A stretch of 64,000 nucleotides of DNA from the NCBI GenBank assembly GCA_036170915.1, contig JAVHQC010000015.1, positions 64,001-128,000 of the forward strand, given 5' to 3'. Positions 32,569-45,575 of the stretch are shown here, piece by piece. How positions within the stretch are numbered: position 1 is the stretch's first letter; every line of letters starts with the position of its first letter. Both the position numbers and the translations under genes were made by a program. The notes beneath the pieces are model-generated. The model had not been told where the DNA came from and did no database searches. It saw only the letters and a list, made by a program, of their open reading frames with translations. The DNA comes from Cyanobacteria bacterium auto_48_18 (lineage in GTDB: Bacteria > Cyanobacteriota > Vampirovibrionia > Obscuribacterales > Obscuribacteraceae).

Positions 32569-33939
32569 ATGAGTACTGGAGCCTGGTTTATTTCTGCTAC
32601 TTCTAAAAATCTAGCCTATTCACCGGCCAAGTTGTGGCTGGTGTTTCAGGCCATCTACTGGAAGGACATGCTTCATTCCTTCCGAGACAAAGACGTATTC
32701 ATTTATACCTTTGTTGTCCCGACGCTGTTGTATCCGGTTTTGCTTCTCGGTTCGGCTGAAATTATGATGCTCAAGGCCGATGCCGACAAGGACAAAACCA
32801 TTAAGTATGCCGTTGCCGCAGATTCAAAGAATGATGCAGGCATTAATCATATCGATGAAATTTTGCAAAAACGCAAACACTTTGTCAAAGTGAATAGCAC
32901 CAATGTTGAGCAAGACCTCGACTCGGGAAAGATTGACGGTGTACTTTCGCGCCATCATGGCGAGGGTAGCTACGTTGAAATCAAAGTCAATAAGCTCGCT
33001 AAAATGGCATCGCTTGATGATGAAGTAAATGCTGAAACCAGTAAGGCATACAATGACGATTTGTCGAAAACTCTTACAGCAAAAGGTCTAGCCCCCGAGA
33101 ATTTGCAAGGATTTTCGGTGGAGTCTCGCAATCTGGTTTCGGAAAGAAGCAACAATCAAAAGCGCTCACCAGATAAACATGCCGGCTTGCAGTTGCGCAA
33201 GGCCAGTAAAAATTTAGAGAATATTTCCGCTACATTCGTGTTGCTTATTTTCAGTCTACTGATGCTTGGCCTGGGTGCCGCCTATCCCGCTATCGCCGTT
33301 ACTGCTGAAGAATTTGAACGCAACACCATTGAGACTTCATGCTTATTGCCCGTATCGAGATCACTATTGATGCTGGGTAAGCTATTTTCCGTTTCAACTT
33401 TTGCTCTGCTATCAGGTGTGATTAATTTTGTCAGCCTTTATGCAGTGGCGCATATGGTGCTCTCGCAAACGAAGCTATTTGCTTCCATGGGCAGCGAACC
33501 ACTGCAAATCAGCGTTAATGCTACACAGGTTGGCGGTTTAATTGCTGGCTATATGCTGGTCGGCTTATTGATATCGTCTCTATTGATCTTGGCCACCAGC
33601 TTCTGTCGCACAGTACGCTCAGCCCAGCAATGGACGACTTTTCCACTCTTTATTATATTGATTTTGCCACCTTGCGCACTGTCCCCTTCATTAGAATTGA
33701 ACGGCTATACCATGTGGATTCCGCTGATTAATTGCTCGCTTATGCTCAAAGCCATTTTCAATGGCACCGTATTTAGTGTTAATTTCCTCGTCGTTTTATT
33801 AGTGACTGTGTTAACTTGCTTGATGTCACTTGGCCTGGCACGGCTCTTTCTTTTTGAGCAAATCGATCCTGGCATCTACTTTGCCAGGCTGTGGGACAAA
33901 CTGATGAGTACAATGAGAACTGAGAGTAAGACGCCATGA
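32569..33939 (+). CDS. ABC-2 permease, NatB-like
   Basis: TM-large loop-5TM topology, AEEFERNTIE..LGKL. Confidence 0.82.
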   Translation: MSTGAWFISATSKNLAYSPAKLWLVFQAIYWKDMLHSFRDKDVFIYTFVVPTLLYPVLLLGSAEIMMLKADADKDKTIKYAVAADSKNDAGINHIDEILQKRKHFVKVNSTNVEQDLDSGKIDGVLSRHHGEGSYVEIKVNKLAKMASLDDEVNAETSKAYNDDLSKTLTAKGLAPENLQGFSVESRNLVSERSNNQKRSPDKHAGLQLRKASKNLENISATFVLLIFSLLMLGLGAAYPAIAVTAEEFERNTIETSCLLPVSRSLLMLGKLFSVSTFALLSGVINFVSLYAVAHMVLSQTKLFASMGSEPLQISVNATQVGGLIAGYMLVGLLISSLLILATSFCRTVRSAQQWTTFPLFIILILPPCALSPSLELNGYTMWIPLINCSLMLKAIFNGTVFSVNFLVVLLVTVLTCLMSLGLARLFLFEQIDPGIYFARLWDKLMSTMRTESKTP

Positions 33940-34685
33940 AACTTCAGGTCAACCAGCTGAGTAAGCGCTTTTATGATCCCAGTCGCGGCGAATTTTTTGC
34001 TTGCAGTGATGTTTCTTTTGAAGTAGCGGAAGGCGAAATATTTGGTTTACTCGGCCCCAACGGAGCCGGTAAAACCACCACATTGAGAGTACTGGCCACT
34101 ATTCTCAAACCCACATCAGGAGCGGCACATTTAGGCGACATTGATATTTTTCGCTACCCTGATGCTGCCCGAGCTGCCCTTGGCTTTCTGTCTTCATCTA
34201 CAGGGCTTTACGAAAGACTTTCGCCGAGAGAAATATTGACCTATTTTGGTCGCCTCAATGGTGTGGCCGAGGGCGCTCTGAAAGAAAAAATTGAGCAGCT
34301 CTTCACGGCCCTCGAGTTTAGGCAATTCGCCGATGTGCGTTGCGGCAAGCTATCGCAGGGCACGCGGCAGAAAGTCTCAATTGCCCGTTCGATTATTCAT
34401 GATCCTAAATTGATGATTTTAGATGAGCCGTCAAACGGTCTTGATGTGGTAGCTACACAAGCTATGCACGCCTTTATCAGGCAGGCAAAGGCTGACGGTA
34501 AATGTATTGTATTCAGCACTCATATTATGTCTGAAGCCGAAAAGCTTTGTGATCGCATTGGTATCATCAATGATGGCAAAGTGCTAGCACAGGGCAGTTT
34601 AGCCGAATTGAAAGAGCTGGCCAGCGCCACTCATTTAGAAGATGTGTTCATGTCACTGGTCAGTCGATATGACTCAGCAAAGTAA
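33936..34685 (+). CDS. ABC exporter ATPase, NatA-like
   Basis: GPNGAGKTT, LSQG, ILDEP, STHIMSEAEKLCDR. Confidence 0.92.
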   Translation: MKLQVNQLSKRFYDPSRGEFFACSDVSFEVAEGEIFGLLGPNGAGKTTTLRVLATILKPTSGAAHLGDIDIFRYPDAARAALGFLSSSTGLYERLSPREILTYFGRLNGVAEGALKEKIEQLFTALEFRQFADVRCGKLSQGTRQKVSIARSIIHDPKLMILDEPSNGLDVVATQAMHAFIRQAKADGKCIVFSTHIMSEAEKLCDRIGIINDGKVLAQGSLAELKELASATHLEDVFMSLVSRYDSAK

Positions 34686-36696
34686 GCAATTTGACTGGCA
34701 TCAAATGTGGGTTGTCTTCGTCAAAGAAATGACCGAAGGCATTCGCGATTTTCGCTCGCTTGTGCCGATGGTGGTGTTCAGCCTGTTTATCGGCCCGCTT
34801 GTGACTATCGGTCTGCCCCTAATAGCCGCTCGCGAAGTACGCCAGGCACTGCAAGAACATTATCGCGTAGCCGATATATCTCCTGGTGGTGGCGCTCTAA
34901 CTTTTTTGCAGAAGTATGATTTTCAAATTGTGCCTCTGGCTGGTGAGAGCAAAGAATCGGCTCTGGCAACAGCCAAGGTCGACACTGTGGTGGAGACTTC
35001 AATTGATTTGTCCCAAAATCAGGATCTGGTGCCTCTGGCCGGGAAAATTCCTACGATCACAGTTTACTATGATGGAACGATAGCGCGTTCGGCCAATGCA
35101 GCCACCAAGCTTGGCCGCGTTTTAGACAACTACAAAGATTATTTTGTCAGAAAACGGCTGATTCGCGCTGGTATCAATTTAGACAAACCCGAGTACGTTA
35201 TGGCCACACTGGTTTCACCTGTGGATGCCATGTGGGCTGCCAGCCCTTTCATTCAAAGCATGCTGGTTTTAATTCTAATTTTTCAGGCTTTTGTGGGTGT
35301 TATTTACCCTTCACTCGACGCCATTACCGGTGAGCGCGAACGCGGCACGCTGGAGGCGCTCTTAACCACTACTGTCAATCGGTTTAACCTGTTTCTCGGT
35401 AAACTGGCTGCCATTGCCGTCAGCTCGTATGCTGTAGTGCTCTCAACTCTGGCTGGATTCTACCTGGCCCAATTTGTCCAGACTAATGTCTTTAGCTTCT
35501 TGCCCCCTTCCATGGCTTCGATTTTAAGCCACCCACTAGCTGTCAAATTGCCCCTGCCCTGTGTCACGGTGCTTGCTCTAGTAATGCTGCCGCTCTGTCT
35601 ATCAATGGCTGCTTCAGCTATGGCCCTGGCCACATACGCGCGTACTGTGCAGCAAGCGCAGGCTTATATGCTTCCTCTAATGGTGTTAATGACTATTCCC
35701 CTGTCAGTGATGGCAATGGGTGACGTGCATCTTGATGCAACGGTGGCACTGGTACCGTTTTTAAATTCTACAATCGGCATGAACGATATTCTCTCTGGTC
35801 GGCTGGCGCTACCATACATGACGCTGTCGGCGGCTATATCGTTGCTTTATTCGATTTTACTTGTGTCAGTAGTGGCGCCGGTTATAGACAGAGAAGATAT
35901 TCTTTTTGGTATTGAAGAATCTCCCAGCCGACGTTTAAAAGAACAGAATTTCGGCAGGGAATTATTTTTACTTTACAGCACCATATTTCTTTTGATGTTT
36001 TATGTGTCGCAGAGTCTTGTGGCCAAGCATCATATTTATGGCATTGCCTTGACTCAGATATTTGTAGTTTTGGCTCCAGGCCTGTTTCTTGCTTTCTTCT
36101 GGTTTAAGCTCAATGCCAGGCAAGTGCTGTTGTTGAAGATGCCGCGTGGCGGAATTTTGACACTTGTGGGTGCGCTGATGTTGGCACCACTGACGGTGTC
36201 GGTGGCCAGTCTATTTGCCATAGCTTTTGCAAAAATGGTGCCCGCCAGTGAGGCGGTGAGTAAGCTGATGGCCGAATACATAGGTCTCAATAGTCAACCG
36301 CTCTGGTTGCTGTTGTTTGTTATCGGTGCTATGCCGGCTATTTGTGAAGAACTTCTTTTTCGTGGCGTGATTCTTTCGCTGATGCCCAAGCGATTTTCAA
36401 CCACGCGTCTGGTTCTCACTGTGGGTCTTTTGTTCGGCGCTTTTCACATGAGCCTGATGCGCTTTCTACCCACCGCTGTGCTTGGCTGTGCGCTCACTTT
36501 CTTGGCACTACGGTCGCGGTCAATCTACCCTTGTATGTTGCTCCATGCTGGGCACAATATGCTCTCGGTGCTTGTGGCGGTGATTTTGAAAGAACATCTT
36601 GAGCCCTGGCATTTAGCTCTCGGCATTACTTGTGGGTTAGTTGGCCTGGGTATTCTAATTTTCACTTTGCGATCATCTGAAGATAGTGCCTCATGA
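34669..36696 (+). CDS. NatB-like ABC permease fused to CPBP (CAAX-type) intramembrane protease
   Basis: GERERGTLEALL..GKL permease; C-terminal EELLFRG, FGAFH, HAGHN motifs. Confidence 0.88.
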   Translation: MTQQSKQFDWHQMWVVFVKEMTEGIRDFRSLVPMVVFSLFIGPLVTIGLPLIAAREVRQALQEHYRVADISPGGGALTFLQKYDFQIVPLAGESKESALATAKVDTVVETSIDLSQNQDLVPLAGKIPTITVYYDGTIARSANAATKLGRVLDNYKDYFVRKRLIRAGINLDKPEYVMATLVSPVDAMWAASPFIQSMLVLILIFQAFVGVIYPSLDAITGERERGTLEALLTTTVNRFNLFLGKLAAIAVSSYAVVLSTLAGFYLAQFVQTNVFSFLPPSMASILSHPLAVKLPLPCVTVLALVMLPLCLSMAASAMALATYARTVQQAQAYMLPLMVLMTIPLSVMAMGDVHLDATVALVPFLNSTIGMNDILSGRLALPYMTLSAAISLLYSILLVSVVAPVIDREDILFGIEESPSRRLKEQNFGRELFLLYSTIFLLMFYVSQSLVAKHHIYGIALTQIFVVLAPGLFLAFFWFKLNARQVLLLKMPRGGILTLVGALMLAPLTVSVASLFAIAFAKMVPASEAVSKLMAEYIGLNSQPLWLLLFVIGAMPAICEELLFRGVILSLMPKRFSTTRLVLTVGLLFGAFHMSLMRFLPTAVLGCALTFLALRSRSIYPCMLLHAGHNMLSVLVAVILKEHLEPWHLALGITCGLVGLGILIFTLRSSEDSAS

Positions 36697-37062: not shown

Positions 37063-37458
37063 TTATTTCAACAGAACCATGCCTGCCCGCGCAGCTTTTT
37101 TGTCAAATGTTACTGTTTTTTCGCAGCCGGAAGCGGCTGAAATGCGCTCTGTCAGGCAGTCTACGAAGTCAGTGTCAGAACTTTCGAATAATCTCAAGGC
37201 CTGCCAAACAATTTCGGCATCTTGAATCAATAATTGTTTAGTACTGAGCAAAAGTCTCAAAATCTTGACGATATCAATTTTTGCCGCTGCATAGCAGCTT
37301 TCGCTCACCCAGACCAATTCTATTAACGCAACCAAACCGATGAAACCGGGTCTGTCAGGCGAACATTGTTGCTCAATTAATCTCGTGGCCAGTGCTGACT
37401 GCACGGCATCGTCTTGGACAATATAGCGAACGAGGACATTGGTATCAAGACCAATCAC
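37063..37458 (-). CDS. PIN-domain toxin (VapC family)
   Basis: IGLDTNVLVRY, ELVWV, DFVDCL, TFDKKA. Confidence 0.93.
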   Translation of the reverse strand: MIGLDTNVLVRYIVQDDAVQSALATRLIEQQCSPDRPGFIGLVALIELVWVSESCYAAAKIDIVKILRLLLSTKQLLIQDAEIVWQALRLFESSDTDFVDCLTERISAASGCEKTVTFDKKAARAGMVLLK

Positions 37459-37691
37459 GAAGAGCCTCGCTTAATTATGGCTTGTCGCATCGCTTCTATT
37501 GATACTGGTTTGTTTGCTTTTTTTAGCAAACCCTTAAGCTCGCGTACGTCTTTGTTGGCAGGTTTGAGAGTGAACTCTCCGAGCACAGTTTCAACAAACT
37601 CTACCCGATCGCCAACGTCTAGTCCTAGCCTCTTGCGCACGCTGAGGGGAATTGTTATTTGGCCTTTACTGGTGACGGTTGAAGTTGACAA
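37455..37691 (-). CDS. AbrB/MazE/SpoVT-family antitoxin
   Basis: TVTSKGQITIPLSVRKRLGL..GDRVEF; 4-nt overlap with toxin. Confidence 0.93.
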   Translation of the reverse strand: MSTSTVTSKGQITIPLSVRKRLGLDVGDRVEFVETVLGEFTLKPANKDVRELKGLLKKANKPVSIEAMRQAIIKRGSS

Positions 37692-37823: not shown

Positions 37824-39989
37824 ATGCAGGTGCTCCCATTGGCGGATTTAGATACAACCGACTTGTCTGGTTTTAACCGGCGCAAAGTTGATACGACAGA
37901 TATCGATGGATTCGGTGGGGCACCTGCCGGCGGTTTTGCCAACGGCACTATTGTTGGTGGTACGTACAAAATTTTGCAGTTTATTGGCGCCGGTGGTATG
38001 GGGCTCGTTTATAAAGTCGAGCACACGATCATGCACAAAGTGTTGGCCCTCAAAGTGCTCAAGACTGACTATCTGTCTGAGTCGGTCTGGCGTCGATTTC
38101 TCATTGAAGCGCAGGCTATCGCCAGATTGAATCACGATAACGTGGTCAAGATTTACGATATGAATCAGACCCCTGATGGTCGGCCATTCTATACGATGGA
38201 TTTAATAGATGGTGAGTCACTGGCCGACTATTTAAAGGAGCATAAGCGCTTGCCTGTAGAGCACGCTTTGCCGCTTTTTCGCCAGGTTTGTGCGGGGCTG
38301 GCCTATGCCCATGAGCGGGGCATTATTCACCGTGACATTAAGCCAGGCAATATCATGCTTATCGGGCAGGGCGGAAACACTGGTCAGTCGAAGATAAAAA
38401 TTGTTGACTTTGGCATTGCCAAAATGACGAACGATGGCAGGCAAACCATGCAAGGGCTTACCAGGCCCGGCGAGGTCTTCGGCAGCCCGCTTTATATGAG
38501 CCCTGAGCAATGCCTTGGTGAAAAGCTAGATCCGCGCTCCGACCTTTATTCGGTTGGTATTACTTTGTTTCAGGCACTAACGGGCAAACCGCCGTTTTTA
38601 GGTCGCACAGCCATGGCCACGACGACAATGCACCTTTCACAGAGCCCTCCGACCTTGAGTGCGGTTGCCGGCGATTTGAAATTTGATGCGCGCCTGGAAA
38701 AATTAGTAGCAACCATGTTGGCTAAAGCACCACACGATCGCTACTCGTCTTTAACTGAAGTGGCAAGTGAGATGCTGCTGATTGAAAAAGGTGAAGTTGC
38801 CTCCGCTAGTAGGCATGGGCAGATATCTGGAAGCCGGCCAACCATCACCAGCGCGCCTGTACAGCCCGATTTTGCTGGGGCTACGACAGAGATTGATCCA
38901 GAGTTCGTCAATGATAGCGATTCATCGTCATTGAAAAGACCAGTGGTATTACTGCTGATGGCACTGGGTATTGTGGGCCTTATGACAGTCGCGTTGCTCA
39001 CGCTGGCGAATTTCAATCAATGGTTTTCATCAAGGCCGGTGCAGTCTTCTGTTAAGACTGAAAGCAAAAGTTTGAATAGCAGCCGGTTAGATAACAGCGA
39101 AGATATCATCTTGGGAGCGAGCGTTGACCCGAAATTGCCCCCGGAGGCGCGTAAGTTTGTTGCCCAGAGAAAGAAAGCCTACTCGACTATTGAGAACGTC
39201 AACGGCACCGAAGTGCTGATTTTTAGTTTCCCCGAAAAATTTTCCATTGGCAAAATTATCAGTAGCGTTGATGGTTTCCGCAAAGAGCGAGAGGCTCAGG
39301 GAAAAGTCGTTTGCCTTAAGTCTGATCGAATTGACTTCAGGGCAAATGAAATAACCCAAGCCGTACCTGAATTGCTCAAATTTTTCCACACGAATGACCT
39401 CAACGCTTTAGAGATTCACGACATTAAGCCTCGTGCTGCGTTTTTGACATCCTGCCTTGGTCGTATGACCTCCCTTAGGGCTCTCAATCTCTCCAATTGT
39501 GCTCTGCTCGACAGAGATCTGATGGCCCTCGAGTCTCTGCCCAAATTGCGTAATTTGCAGATAGACTATTCGGGAATTACTGGTGCTGCTCTAGCAAAGA
39601 GCAAGTTACTGCCGAAATTGGAAACATTATCAATTGTGGGGATTAAAGATTGTGCACCGGTATTGGTGGCACTAAGCAAAACAAATAGTATAAAGACGCT
39701 TTTCCTTGATCGTTGTAAGCTTGCCGATGCTGAAATAGCAGATATTGCGAAGCTCACTAGCCTGGAGCATCTTTCGCTTAAGTGGGACGGTCTTACTGAT
39801 TCGAATCTGGCAAAATTGACTGTGTTGAAGAATTTAACTGAGATCAATGTCTACGGCAATAACCTTACACAGGTCAGTCAGTACACCTTGAGCAAATTTC
39901 CACTTTTGCGAGATAGGCTTCTACCCGTGGCTAAAAAGGGAGAGGCTGATTGGGGCCGCAACCGTGATACTAATGATTTGAAGTTGTGA
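37824..39989 (+). CDS. Hanks-type Ser/Thr kinase with TM helix and C-terminal leucine-rich repeats
   Basis: IGAGGMG, ALKVL, HRDIKPGN, DFG, YMSPEQ; TM; LxxLxL repeats. Confidence 0.93.
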   Translation: MQVLPLADLDTTDLSGFNRRKVDTTDIDGFGGAPAGGFANGTIVGGTYKILQFIGAGGMGLVYKVEHTIMHKVLALKVLKTDYLSESVWRRFLIEAQAIARLNHDNVVKIYDMNQTPDGRPFYTMDLIDGESLADYLKEHKRLPVEHALPLFRQVCAGLAYAHERGIIHRDIKPGNIMLIGQGGNTGQSKIKIVDFGIAKMTNDGRQTMQGLTRPGEVFGSPLYMSPEQCLGEKLDPRSDLYSVGITLFQALTGKPPFLGRTAMATTTMHLSQSPPTLSAVAGDLKFDARLEKLVATMLAKAPHDRYSSLTEVASEMLLIEKGEVASASRHGQISGSRPTITSAPVQPDFAGATTEIDPEFVNDSDSSSLKRPVVLLLMALGIVGLMTVALLTLANFNQWFSSRPVQSSVKTESKSLNSSRLDNSEDIILGASVDPKLPPEARKFVAQRKKAYSTIENVNGTEVLIFSFPEKFSIGKIISSVDGFRKEREAQGKVVCLKSDRIDFRANEITQAVPELLKFFHTNDLNALEIHDIKPRAAFLTSCLGRMTSLRALNLSNCALLDRDLMALESLPKLRNLQIDYSGITGAALAKSKLLPKLETLSIVGIKDCAPVLVALSKTNSIKTLFLDRCKLADAEIADIAKLTSLEHLSLKWDGLTDSNLAKLTVLKNLTEINVYGNNLTQVSQYTLSKFPLLRDRLLPVAKKGEADWGRNRDTNDLKL

Positions 39990-40068
39990 GCGACTAGTAA
40001 GTCTGAATTGGGCGAATCGTGTCACATGCTGATTTAATAGGAAGAGCGACTAAAAGGAGAGTTTGACT

Positions 40069-40227
40069 ATGAGCGAAGCTTGTTGCCCACCTGAGTGCTG
40101 CGATAGCAAAGACTGTGAACCATGCAAAGGCTGCGACTGTTGTTGCTGTTGCTGTAAAGATTACAAAGAGGGACAAAAGTGCTCTTGTAGTCCTTCTAAG
40201 CCATGTGCCACACAAGCGAAAAAATAA
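40069..40227 (+). CDS. Cys-rich 52-aa peptide, metallothionein-like
   Basis: AAGGAG RBS; MSEACCPPECCDSKDCEPCKGCDCCCCCCKDYKEGQKCSCSPSKPCATQAKK (16 Cys); fills an intergenic gap. Confidence 0.75.
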   Translation: MSEACCPPECCDSKDCEPCKGCDCCCCCCKDYKEGQKCSCSPSKPCATQAKK

Positions 40228-40247
40228 AGGTTAAGTAGACGAGAGAA

Positions 40248-40949
40248 TCAATTTTCACTTCTTTTTACTGTATCAGGCACCAAAAACAAACCATATCCGA
40301 CGCCGTGTACATTGCGAACTACTGAAGGTTGTCCTGGTAGATCGAGCTTTTGTCTTAAACGTTTGATGCAGGTGGTCAGAGCCTCAGCTGTGGCTTCAGA
40401 GTCACTCGACCAAACGCGCAGAAGCAGTTCGTCGGTGACAAATAACCTTTTCGGATTGCGCATCATAAATTGCAGCAGAGCAAATTCTTTTGGCAGCAAG
40501 CGAACTTCTTCGCCGTTGCGTTTGACCACAAAATTATCAGGATCGAGTTCGATGTCGCCATGTTTAAGAATGGTCGGTAGCATGGCTTGTGGACGACGCA
40601 GCAGAGCTTTTACTCGAGCTGATAATTCTTTGCCATGAAAAGGCTTGGTGAGAAAATCATCAGCGCCGGTTTCGAAGCCTTCCAACTTGTCTTCCATGGC
40701 TCGTTTGCCTGTTAAGATCAGCACCGGTGTCATGGCACCCTGAGCACGAAACGAGCGCAAAATGTCCATACCAGAGACGCCGGGCAGACCCAAATCGAGA
40801 ATGACCAATTCATATTCGAAGATTTGTAGGCGCTCGAGGCCTTCGTTGCCGGTTGGCACCACTTCTACCGTGTGGTGATCGAAAGAAAGCCATTCTTCTA
40901 TCACGGCGGCAAATTCAGCATCGTCTTCAACTACTAAAATTTTGGCCAT
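40248..40949 (-). CDS. OmpR-family response regulator
   Basis: ILVVEDD, ILDLGLP, GADDFLTKPF, winged helix ending VHGVGY. Confidence 0.95.
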   Translation of the reverse strand: MAKILVVEDDAEFAAVIEEWLSFDHHTVEVVPTGNEGLERLQIFEYELVILDLGLPGVSGMDILRSFRAQGAMTPVLILTGKRAMEDKLEGFETGADDFLTKPFHGKELSARVKALLRRPQAMLPTILKHGDIELDPDNFVVKRNGEEVRLLPKEFALLQFMMRNPKRLFVTDELLLRVWSSDSEATAEALTTCIKRLRQKLDLPGQPSVVRNVHGVGYGLFLVPDTVKRSEN

Positions 40950-44474: not shown

Positions 44475-45575
44475 ATGCAGAAGCGGTTCGTCTTTGTTTT
44501 AACAGCCTTTTCAATTTCGATTGGTGCCTCGGTCTTCCTAGCTCAAGCTTCGCCTGCACAGTTATTGCAACGTCTGCAAGAACGCCGCGAAGCCATGCAA
44601 GTAAAAGAACAGCAAAATCAAAACCAGGGCCAACCCGCTTCTGCTGCTCCTCAGGCGCAGTCAAATAGTTCAGACGTGTCTATGGTGACATTACAGGTTC
44701 AACATGGTGCTTCCGGACAGCAAATGGTTGTCACTCCTAAGGGGATGGTAGTGCCGCTTCCTGGACCGGGTGTTTCAGGAAAGGTCGTGCACATTTATAT
44801 CGGTGCTGGCGGCGGATACTGGTATGTGGATCGCAATAACAAACAAGTTGATTTGACTGCTGCTGTACAAACGTTGCAGTCTGGCCCTGCGCCGCAGCAA
44901 ATGGCATCAGTTCCTCAGTATGCTCCGCCTCCGCAAGGTTATGCCCAGACTGCTTCCGGAGCTGGTGCTGTCACAACCGCAGCAGCTGCCGGTCTTGGTG
45001 CCATGGCAGGTTCGGCTATGGCTTCTACCTGGGACACCGTACCTTACGGCGCGCCAATTCGTTATGGTGTCGGAGCGGTGCCTTATTACAATCACAACGG
45101 CAGCCCGGTTTACATTAACGCCTCGACCAACACCGCGGCATACGCCAATGTTAATAGCACTCATGTAGCAGCCATTAATGAGCAACAAAATTGGTACGCG
45201 CAGCAGCAGGTAGCAAAAGGTGCTAACTGGAGAACGTGGCAACAGCCCACTGCTAACCCATTCGTCAACACGGCGTATCATCAACCAGACGCCGCTTATG
45301 GTGCCGCAGCAGCTCACTATGGAGTGGAGCAAGGGCAGCAAGACGCCAGATATGGTGCAGCCGCTGGAGCTACAGCAGCCCACTATGGAGCGGAGCAAGG
45401 GCAGCAAGATGCAAGGCGTGGTGCCGCCGCTGGTGCTACAGCAGCCCACTACGGATCGGAGCAAGGGCAGGAAGAGGCAAGGCGTGGTGCCGCCGCTGGA
45501 GCTACAGCAGCCCGCAACGGTGGCTTTAACGGTGATGAACGCCGTGCGGGCCGCACTGCTGGTCGGCGGCGCTAG
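44475..45575 (+). CDS. Secreted Ala/Gly/Gln-rich hypothetical protein with C-terminal repeats
   Basis: GAGG RBS, signal peptide, 22-aa repeats. Confidence 0.7.
   Translation: MQKRFVFVLTAFSISIGASVFLAQASPAQLLQRLQERREAMQVKEQQNQNQGQPASAAPQAQSNSSDVSMVTLQVQHGASGQQMVVTPKGMVVPLPGPGVSGKVVHIYIGAGGGYWYVDRNNKQVDLTAAVQTLQSGPAPQQMASVPQYAPPPQGYAQTASGAGAVTTAAAAGLGAMAGSAMASTWDTVPYGAPIRYGVGAVPYYNHNGSPVYINASTNTAAYANVNSTHVAAINEQQNWYAQQQVAKGANWRTWQQPTANPFVNTAYHQPDAAYGAAAAHYGVEQGQQDARYGAAAGATAAHYGAEQGQQDARRGAAAGATAAHYGSEQGQEEARRGAAAGATAARNGGFNGDERRAGRTAGRRR
45315..45512 (+). repeat. 66-bp coding tandem repeat x3 (HYGxEQGQxxARxGAAAGATAA)
   Basis: Units start at 45315, 45381, 45447. Confidence 0.9.

Follow-up and report, generated by a model that had tools for sequence, protein, structure and literature searches.

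A 52-amino-acid peptide encoded within the window (the whole 64,000-nt stretch of DNA analysed here) quite probably represents a new, histidine-free family of metallothionein-like proteins. A preliminary description, based on the letters alone, had proposed such a family, and the comparative analysis strengthened the proposal: an ArsR/SmtB repressor gene and its operator lie upstream in most homologous loci, no known family matches the peptide, and no RiPP-modifying enzyme is conserved nearby. The usual place of the gene, right behind a metal-sensing repressor, makes a metal-soaking 'sponge' protein the most likely role of its product.

Retranslation of the forward strand returned the 52-residue frame with 16 Cys and a CCCCCC run exactly as claimed (Table 1), and a recount of the 5.57-kDa product (16 Cys, or 30.8%; no His; one Tyr; K8, D4, E4, S5, P5) agreed with the reported 31% Cys, lack of His, single aromatic residue and richness in K, D, E, S and P. 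The AAGGAG ribosome-binding site named there was likewise located. The peptide is hydrophilic (GRAVY -0.65), its N-terminus is not signal-like, and it ranks first in Cys fraction among the 29,529 ORFs that start with ATG and encode 25-120 aa across the 4.94-Mb genome, with 31% as against 22% for the runner-up. Small size combined with many Cys and few aromatic residues is a metallothionein trait, as is the arrangement of conserved Cys in CC, CxC and CxxC motifs found throughout the peptide family. An AlphaFold model of the apo peptide was uninformative (mean pLDDT 53.7).

Table 1 Features at and around the peptide gene, in window coordinates.
Feature	Position	Strand	Remark
Ser/Thr kinase-LRR gene (context)	37824..39989	+	Possible read-through into the peptide gene; no terminator-like site found
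Segment with the peptide gene	40000..40258	.	Congeners G006 and G009 lack it at this site
Extended -10-like element, one mismatch to TGnTATAAT	40030..40038	+	May be the orphan copy's own promoter (inferred; tested post hoc)
Shine-Dalgarno AAGGAG	40054..40059	+	ATG 9 nt further; GGAG/AGGA element ahead of 43/45 loci
CDS of the 52-aa, 16-Cys, His-free metallothionein-like peptide	40069..40227	+	CC-x3-CC-x4-C-x-P-C-x-G-C-x-CCCCCC-x8-C-x-C-x5-C
Six-Cys run, Cys24-Cys29	40138..40155	+	Mixed TGT/TGC codons; CCC-x-CC in other subfamilies
Response regulator (Response_reg + Trans_reg_C; context)	40248..40949	-	Convergent; no conserved association with the peptide

The 58 homolog hits gave 45 distinct loci, the window included, after removal of four that were antisense or repeats and one that duplicated a start; 42 coding sequences entered the codon analysis, with L044 (Ns), L059 (degenerate) and L061 (unclear start) left out. 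Conservation of frame and Cys in related genomes, the check suggested at the outset, was found: homologs exist, 15 of the 16 Cys are invariant across the 42 sequences and the last is kept in 41, while no His occurs in any of them (family Cys content 31.7%). With the window copy as reference for 41 homologs, median pS was 0.89 as opposed to a pN of 0.21, and differences at codon positions 1, 2 and 3 numbered 456, 380 and 1198; synonymous sites are saturated across the set. On this comparative evidence the ORF is a real gene, held under purifying selection. Mixed codon usage had already been taken to speak against a simple microsatellite, and this argument grew firmer: the window gene uses TGT nine times and TGC seven times, and the 42 genes write the six-Cys run in 28 distinct TGT/TGC patterns, so that the run is neither a microsatellite nor a slipping repeat. 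Its length of six in all 42 is a partly circular figure, because searches and filter selected for the run. The best alternative frame is open in 27 of 42 homologs, and none is open in all.

Homologs were detected by a first profile (A1) in 26 of the 107 genomes of the order, all within the window's own family, and in none of 400 other genomes of the phylum. A combined profile (A5) matched 33 of 103 family genomes, an undercount since six of the eight copies in genus g32 escape it, and returned nothing from 297 genomes of the class outside the family. Two named 'Candidatus Melainabacteria' records match the peptide at 76% identity among the matches listed in a single-sequence scan of genome contigs, and 23 loci from a metagenome scan carry homologs. 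Coverage beyond the phylum consists of that contig scan (matches listed), the metagenome scan and a search of 1.84 billion proteins; plasmids and viral contigs were searched as well and gave no match. Judged by these matches, the peptide family does not extend, in the genomes covered, beyond a single family of Melainabacteria, probably of the Obscuribacterales. Its occurrence there is patchy, an A1 match being missing from 10 of 14 congeners. Gene callers mostly miss the family: the peptide is not called as a protein in a collection of 15 billion sequences, six representatives of the family occur among the 1.84 billion proteins, and a word-indexed protein search gave 0, 1 and 3 matches.

Searches for known relatives yielded no Pfam family at E ≤ 10 for the peptide and five homologs, no NCBIfam family for the peptide or for 13 members of four subfamilies, and nothing at E ≤ 10 in a PDB profile search with the peptide; by these measures it belongs to no Pfam, NCBIfam or PDB entry searched. 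Leads from the ESM Atlas all stayed under 0.9. No prior description of the family was found in the searchable literature, which leaves out most subscription journals and bioRxiv supplements, and the DeepMetagenome supplements held no match to the peptide motif.

Tracing the partner regulator, present in 40 of the 107 genomes, exposed peptides missed by the first profile, including shorter variants without the six-Cys run. Genus g32 has a longer form with CCC-x-CC in all eight genomes, and genus g24 a 14-Cys form in both genomes that have the regulator; five of six weak matches fetched proved to be 43-aa stand-alone forms without regulator or operator. A core, C-x2-C-x2-C-x-CCC-x-CC, is common to all subfamilies, and 13 Cys columns are invariant over 13 sequences of four subfamilies, in an alignment with some uncertain gap placements. 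The contiguous CCCCCC, presented earlier as a hallmark, therefore holds as such for one subfamily but not for the others, which carry CCC-x-CC. The stand-alone 43-aa genes (L175:2073-2204, L176:2017-2148, L177:2086-2217, L179 and L180:2032-2163), none with an operator, keep a conserved synteny of their own in genus g48, and two genomes (G104 and G111) hold both the stand-alone and the regulated forms.

Of the 44 other loci, 37 have an ArsR/SmtB gene on the same strand that ends 3-55 nt 5' of the peptide gene; the regulator is missing in six, and upstream sequence in one. All three regulators scanned exceeded the cut-off of the metalloregulator model NF033788 (84-90 vs 55 bits). The best PDB match was 6UVU (E 1.5e-32), ahead of SmtB (9e-16) and CadC (7e-9); 6UVU is nearly identical in sequence to a plasmid protein annotated AntR, itself the best plasmid match of the regulator at 51% identity. 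Six Cys are conserved in the regulator: an N-terminal CC, an alpha3 CxC and an alpha5 C-X9-C. The alpha5 pair, C106 and C116, is present in 37/37 regulators and aligns to C103 and C113 of AntR (6UVU and the plasmid protein), the pair that we take to be the Sb site. The N-terminal CC and alpha3 CxC match an alpha3N-type site, a type that favours Cd and Pb according to the available text of PMC8790569. AntR is described, in the accessible parts of two papers, as responding to Sb(III) and methylarsenite and as controlling antC and antA (PMC12665635, PMC12641948). Among named proteins, then, the Sb(III) sensor AntR matches the regulator best by sequence. In the regulator tree the peptide-linked clades A/B/C form a group with support 94/91, but the deep forks do not place this group relative to AntR.

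A palindrome, ACTATT(A/C)CAC-N6-GT(G/T)TAATAGT, lies 5' of the regulator in 32 of these 37 loci and in none of the other eight; four of the five misses fall at contig ends, and the fifth (L004) has an internally deleted regulator. The palindrome is followed by a -10-like hexamer and, 6-7 nt later in 19 of 31 cases, by an ATG, a spacing that suggests a leaderless, autorepressed transcript. Strict matches occur in 21 of 107 genomes, and since nearly all sites listed adjoin these regulators, the predicted regulon looks small. One operator-like site, at L111 (G084:C4:32940-32963), has no regulator or peptide called nearby. The operator core, ATTACA-N8-TGTAAT, also precedes antR and four other plasmid relatives (chance expectation 0.015 per 170 bp), whose downstream genes encode a BmtA-type metallothionein in Bacillus cereus, CadD in Lactiplantibacillus, an arsM cluster in Mycobacterium and unknown products in Massilia. 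Since the same regulator type serves metals and metalloids alike, the identity of the ion does not follow from it.

The surroundings of 44 loci, mostly covered to ±1.5 kb, held 188 neighbour ORFs, and the regulator alone recurs widely there. Metal-handling neighbours are occasional (CDF, CusB/OEP, MerC-like and ars genes), and most of the 44 loci have no metal transporter near the peptide. Two SAM-methyltransferase families each recur in four loci (downstream in L002, L012, L023 and L060; nearby in L005, L006, L013 and L019). An arsR / VOC-fold / arsC-like cluster lies directly 3' of a regulator without peptide at L084:1465-3146 (G101) and of a degenerate peptide without regulator at L059:213-1611 (G116). 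More distant regulator paralogs have company of their own: 92-93-aa CxxxC-rich proteins encoded divergently (L123:2608-2886 and L131:2387-2668, both on the minus strand) resemble four-helix copper-storage proteins, with a weak DUF326 match (E 0.008) in one. Another paralog group stands divergent to a Cys-rich protein (L124:2217-3362, L126:1317-2453, L130:3782-4960) that, in the one scanned, has MtrA and PterinBD-DUF4346 domains; a domain resembling methanogen methyltransferases thus occurs here in a bacterium and under a metalloregulator.

The window copy departs from this arrangement. Its genome, 86% complete, yielded no regulator ortholog at E ≤ 1e-20 (best identity 30%) and no operator site above 10 bits (training sites, 27-56 bits), and no regulator remnant was found upstream of the gene; as far as this assembly goes, the copy is an orphan without regulator or operator. 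The evidence from context therefore comes from the homologs, not from the window locus. Whereas the flanking genes are 258 bp apart in the window, only 7 bp separate them in G006, the closest congener, and G009 lacks the segment at this site too, which makes insertion in the window's lineage the simpler reading. Elsewhere, the peptide gene has been cleanly deleted between regulator stop and downstream hairpin in G004 (L080:1866-1900, compared with the syntenic L013), and a decayed regulator tail alone remains upstream at L012; the two halves of the module are thus lost independently. A scan for standard -35/-10 promoters and terminators at the window locus returned nothing. The score of the extended -10-like element is reached by 0.9% of 5000 random 55-nt windows of the genome; in a post hoc count, such elements with at most two mismatches precede four of six orphans, against a 13% background, and none of 37 copies linked to a regulator, where coding DNA lies upstream. 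Farther out, the window holds a MazE/AbrB antitoxin and PIN toxin pair 5' of the kinase gene (37063-37691, minus strand), a three-gene ABC exporter-like cluster, judged by eye from the translations, whose last gene has a long membrane C-terminal part (32569-36696, plus strand), and a protein of 366 aa, rich in Ala, Gln and Gly, that has tandem repeats at its C-terminus and no Pfam match at E ≤ 1e-8 (44475-45575, plus strand).

Like SmtA/BmtA (PF02069) with SmtB in the same phylum, the peptide is small, Cys-rich and tied to an ArsR/SmtB repressor. The expected difference from SmtA/BmtA, which combine Cys with His in another pattern, was confirmed: the peptide lacks His and a PF02069 match, and its 16 Cys include CC pairs and the six-Cys run. 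Membership of the BmtA/SmtA family was rejected on the Pfam result and on the absence of His from the 42 sequences. Its repressor lies upstream on the same strand, unlike the divergent repressor of SmtA as laid out in the available text of PMC7387436; and where SmtB is described with an alpha5 DxH-x10-H-x2-E site and a 12-2-12 operator (PMC8790569, accessible part), the family's regulator lacks this site and its operator is 10-6-10 or longer. A Bacillus cereus plasmid has its genes in the same order behind the same operator: a regulator of this type (46% identity) and, 16 nt downstream, the 'metallothionein' WP_041846674.1, a BmtA-like protein (PF02069 E 4e-5, below cut-off) dissimilar to the peptide (E 0.92); the architecture as such therefore has a metallothionein precedent. 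That metallothionein is His-free, and the region (L065:3498-4008 on NZ_CP120959.1) also has CadD, ZIP and CopZ genes.

The likeness of the CC/CxC/CxxC clusters to eukaryotic or MymT-like metallothioneins, proposed at first sight, stood in part. With about 30% Cys in CC, CCC and CXCC clusters, the peptide resembles the ciliate Cd-thioneins of family 7a and further His-free metallothioneins of eukaryotes, as far as these are described in PMC4862169; animal metallothioneins average 31.65% Cys and 0.15% His in the portion of PMC11705764 available. No homology was detected, however: the peptide is much shorter than ciliate Cd-thioneins, its six Cys are contiguous, and the ESM Atlas lead to PF02067 scores 0.78. 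The MymT half of the comparison found no library match. MymT has fewer Cys than the peptide and contains His. Both are small and lie outside the BmtA family, and MymT of Mycobacterium serves copper detoxification according to the accessible text of PMC7387436; the two are set apart here by description.

From the observed gene order we infer how an ancestral module may have worked: a palindromic operator over a promoter, then the gene for an AntR-type ArsR/SmtB repressor, then that for the peptide and, in many cases, a hairpin terminator. As long as metal is absent, a repressor dimer would occupy the palindrome and keep both genes silent; a soft ion bound at its Cys sites (N-terminal CC plus alpha3 CxC, and/or alpha5 C-X9-C) would release it; and the peptide then made in the cytoplasm may enclose several ions within clusters of thiolates; by analogy with other metallothioneins, 16 Cys would suit about 5-6 ions if divalent or 5 if trivalent. 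In the window's lineage the repressor would have been lost or left behind, and the copy is probably expressed without metal control, via the extended -10 element or read-through from the kinase gene.

Given a metallothionein role, the main cargo is somewhat more probably Cd, Zn, Pb or Hg than any other; Sb(III) or As(III) is possible at perhaps half that weight, and Cu(I) or Ag(I) slightly less probable still. The tilt to Cd/Zn-type ions comes from the CCC-rich, His-free make-up, nearer to ciliate Cd-thioneins than to the His-using bacterial ones (the latter as described in part of PMC10612145); in the available text of PMC4862169, ciliate Cd-thioneins typically contain CCC and CXCC clusters, which ciliate Cu-thioneins almost entirely lack. 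Sb and As stay candidates through the kinship with AntR and through L059 and L084 beside ars clusters, and the regulator's AntR-type clade points to their addition to the Cu, Zn and Cd first considered. A bolder and rather doubtful version has the module as an AntR-type antimonite/arsenite sensor wired to a dedicated metallothionein that would sequester the trivalent metalloids Sb(III), As(III) and methylarsenite through three-coordinate sites in its six-Cys run.

The ant operon (AntR-AntC-AntA) of Comamonas and Enterobacter bears on another role, that of a metallochaperone which, like AntC with AntA, would deliver its ions to an efflux pump instead of serving as an end-point sink; AntC is described as a chaperone in the accessible text of PMC12641948. 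The likeness extends to the best-matching regulator with its alpha5 C-X9-C, to ATTACA-N8-TGTAAT and to a small gene directly after the regulator, so that the peptide gene stands in the AntC position. A chaperone is nonetheless improbable: the AntC-position protein has three Cys and, by inspection, no similarity to the peptide, no AntA pump comes next, no P-type ATPase or other pump recurs among the 188 neighbour ORFs, and in many loci a hairpin follows the peptide gene directly. The regulator differs from that of the ant operon in two extra Cys that complete the alpha3N-type site. Membership of the AntC family was rejected too, as the peptide has neither the single GCGPGCGC motif nor a downstream P-type ATPase.

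We consider equally improbable a redox or sulfane-sulfur buffer with no metal role, under a thiol-switch ArsR of the BigR/SqrR kind. Some ArsR proteins sense persulfides, Cys-rich peptides are redox-active, and the regulator does have six conserved Cys; against this, the BigR model scores it at 45-48 bits, far from the cut-off of 155, and among named proteins it comes closest to AntR and to regulators encoded next to metallothionein, CadD and arsM genes. A RiPP precursor or exported disulfide-rich peptide is less probable again, despite the short, Cys-rich sequence, the two methyltransferase families in four loci each and a divergent ORF with a radical-SAM motif at L012. That motif occurs in one of 44 loci, no modifying enzyme, exporter or leader is conserved, and the Cys begin at residue 5; the orphan window copy is intact although, in line with the earlier remark on YcaO and radical SAM genes, none of the 38 other window ORFs scanned has such a Pfam match. 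That there is no gene at all, only a TGY trinucleotide repeat or the shadow of an antisense 73-aa ORF, is hardly credible: the low-complexity core and the lack of a called protein in the 15-billion-sequence collection would fit, but pN far below pS, the third-position bias, the 28 codon patterns of the run and alternative frames broken in many homologs largely refute it.

A metallothionein-like sponge would enlarge a short list: few bacterial metallothioneins have been characterised, and a 2020 paper, in the text available, lists SmtA and MymT as the only two whose biological function has been studied (PMC7387436). The family combines lack of His and eukaryote-like Cys density with a contiguous six-Cys run under strict selection, whose role the natural CCC-x-CC variants allow to be tested directly. 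With its own repressor and operator, it would make a 0.6-kb sensor-plus-sink cassette that is easily tested in E. coli. AntR-type repressors appear to pair with unrelated small putative metal-binding proteins, and should the antimonite/arsenite version hold, sequestration would join efflux and methylation, the ways already known, as a means of resisting metalloids.
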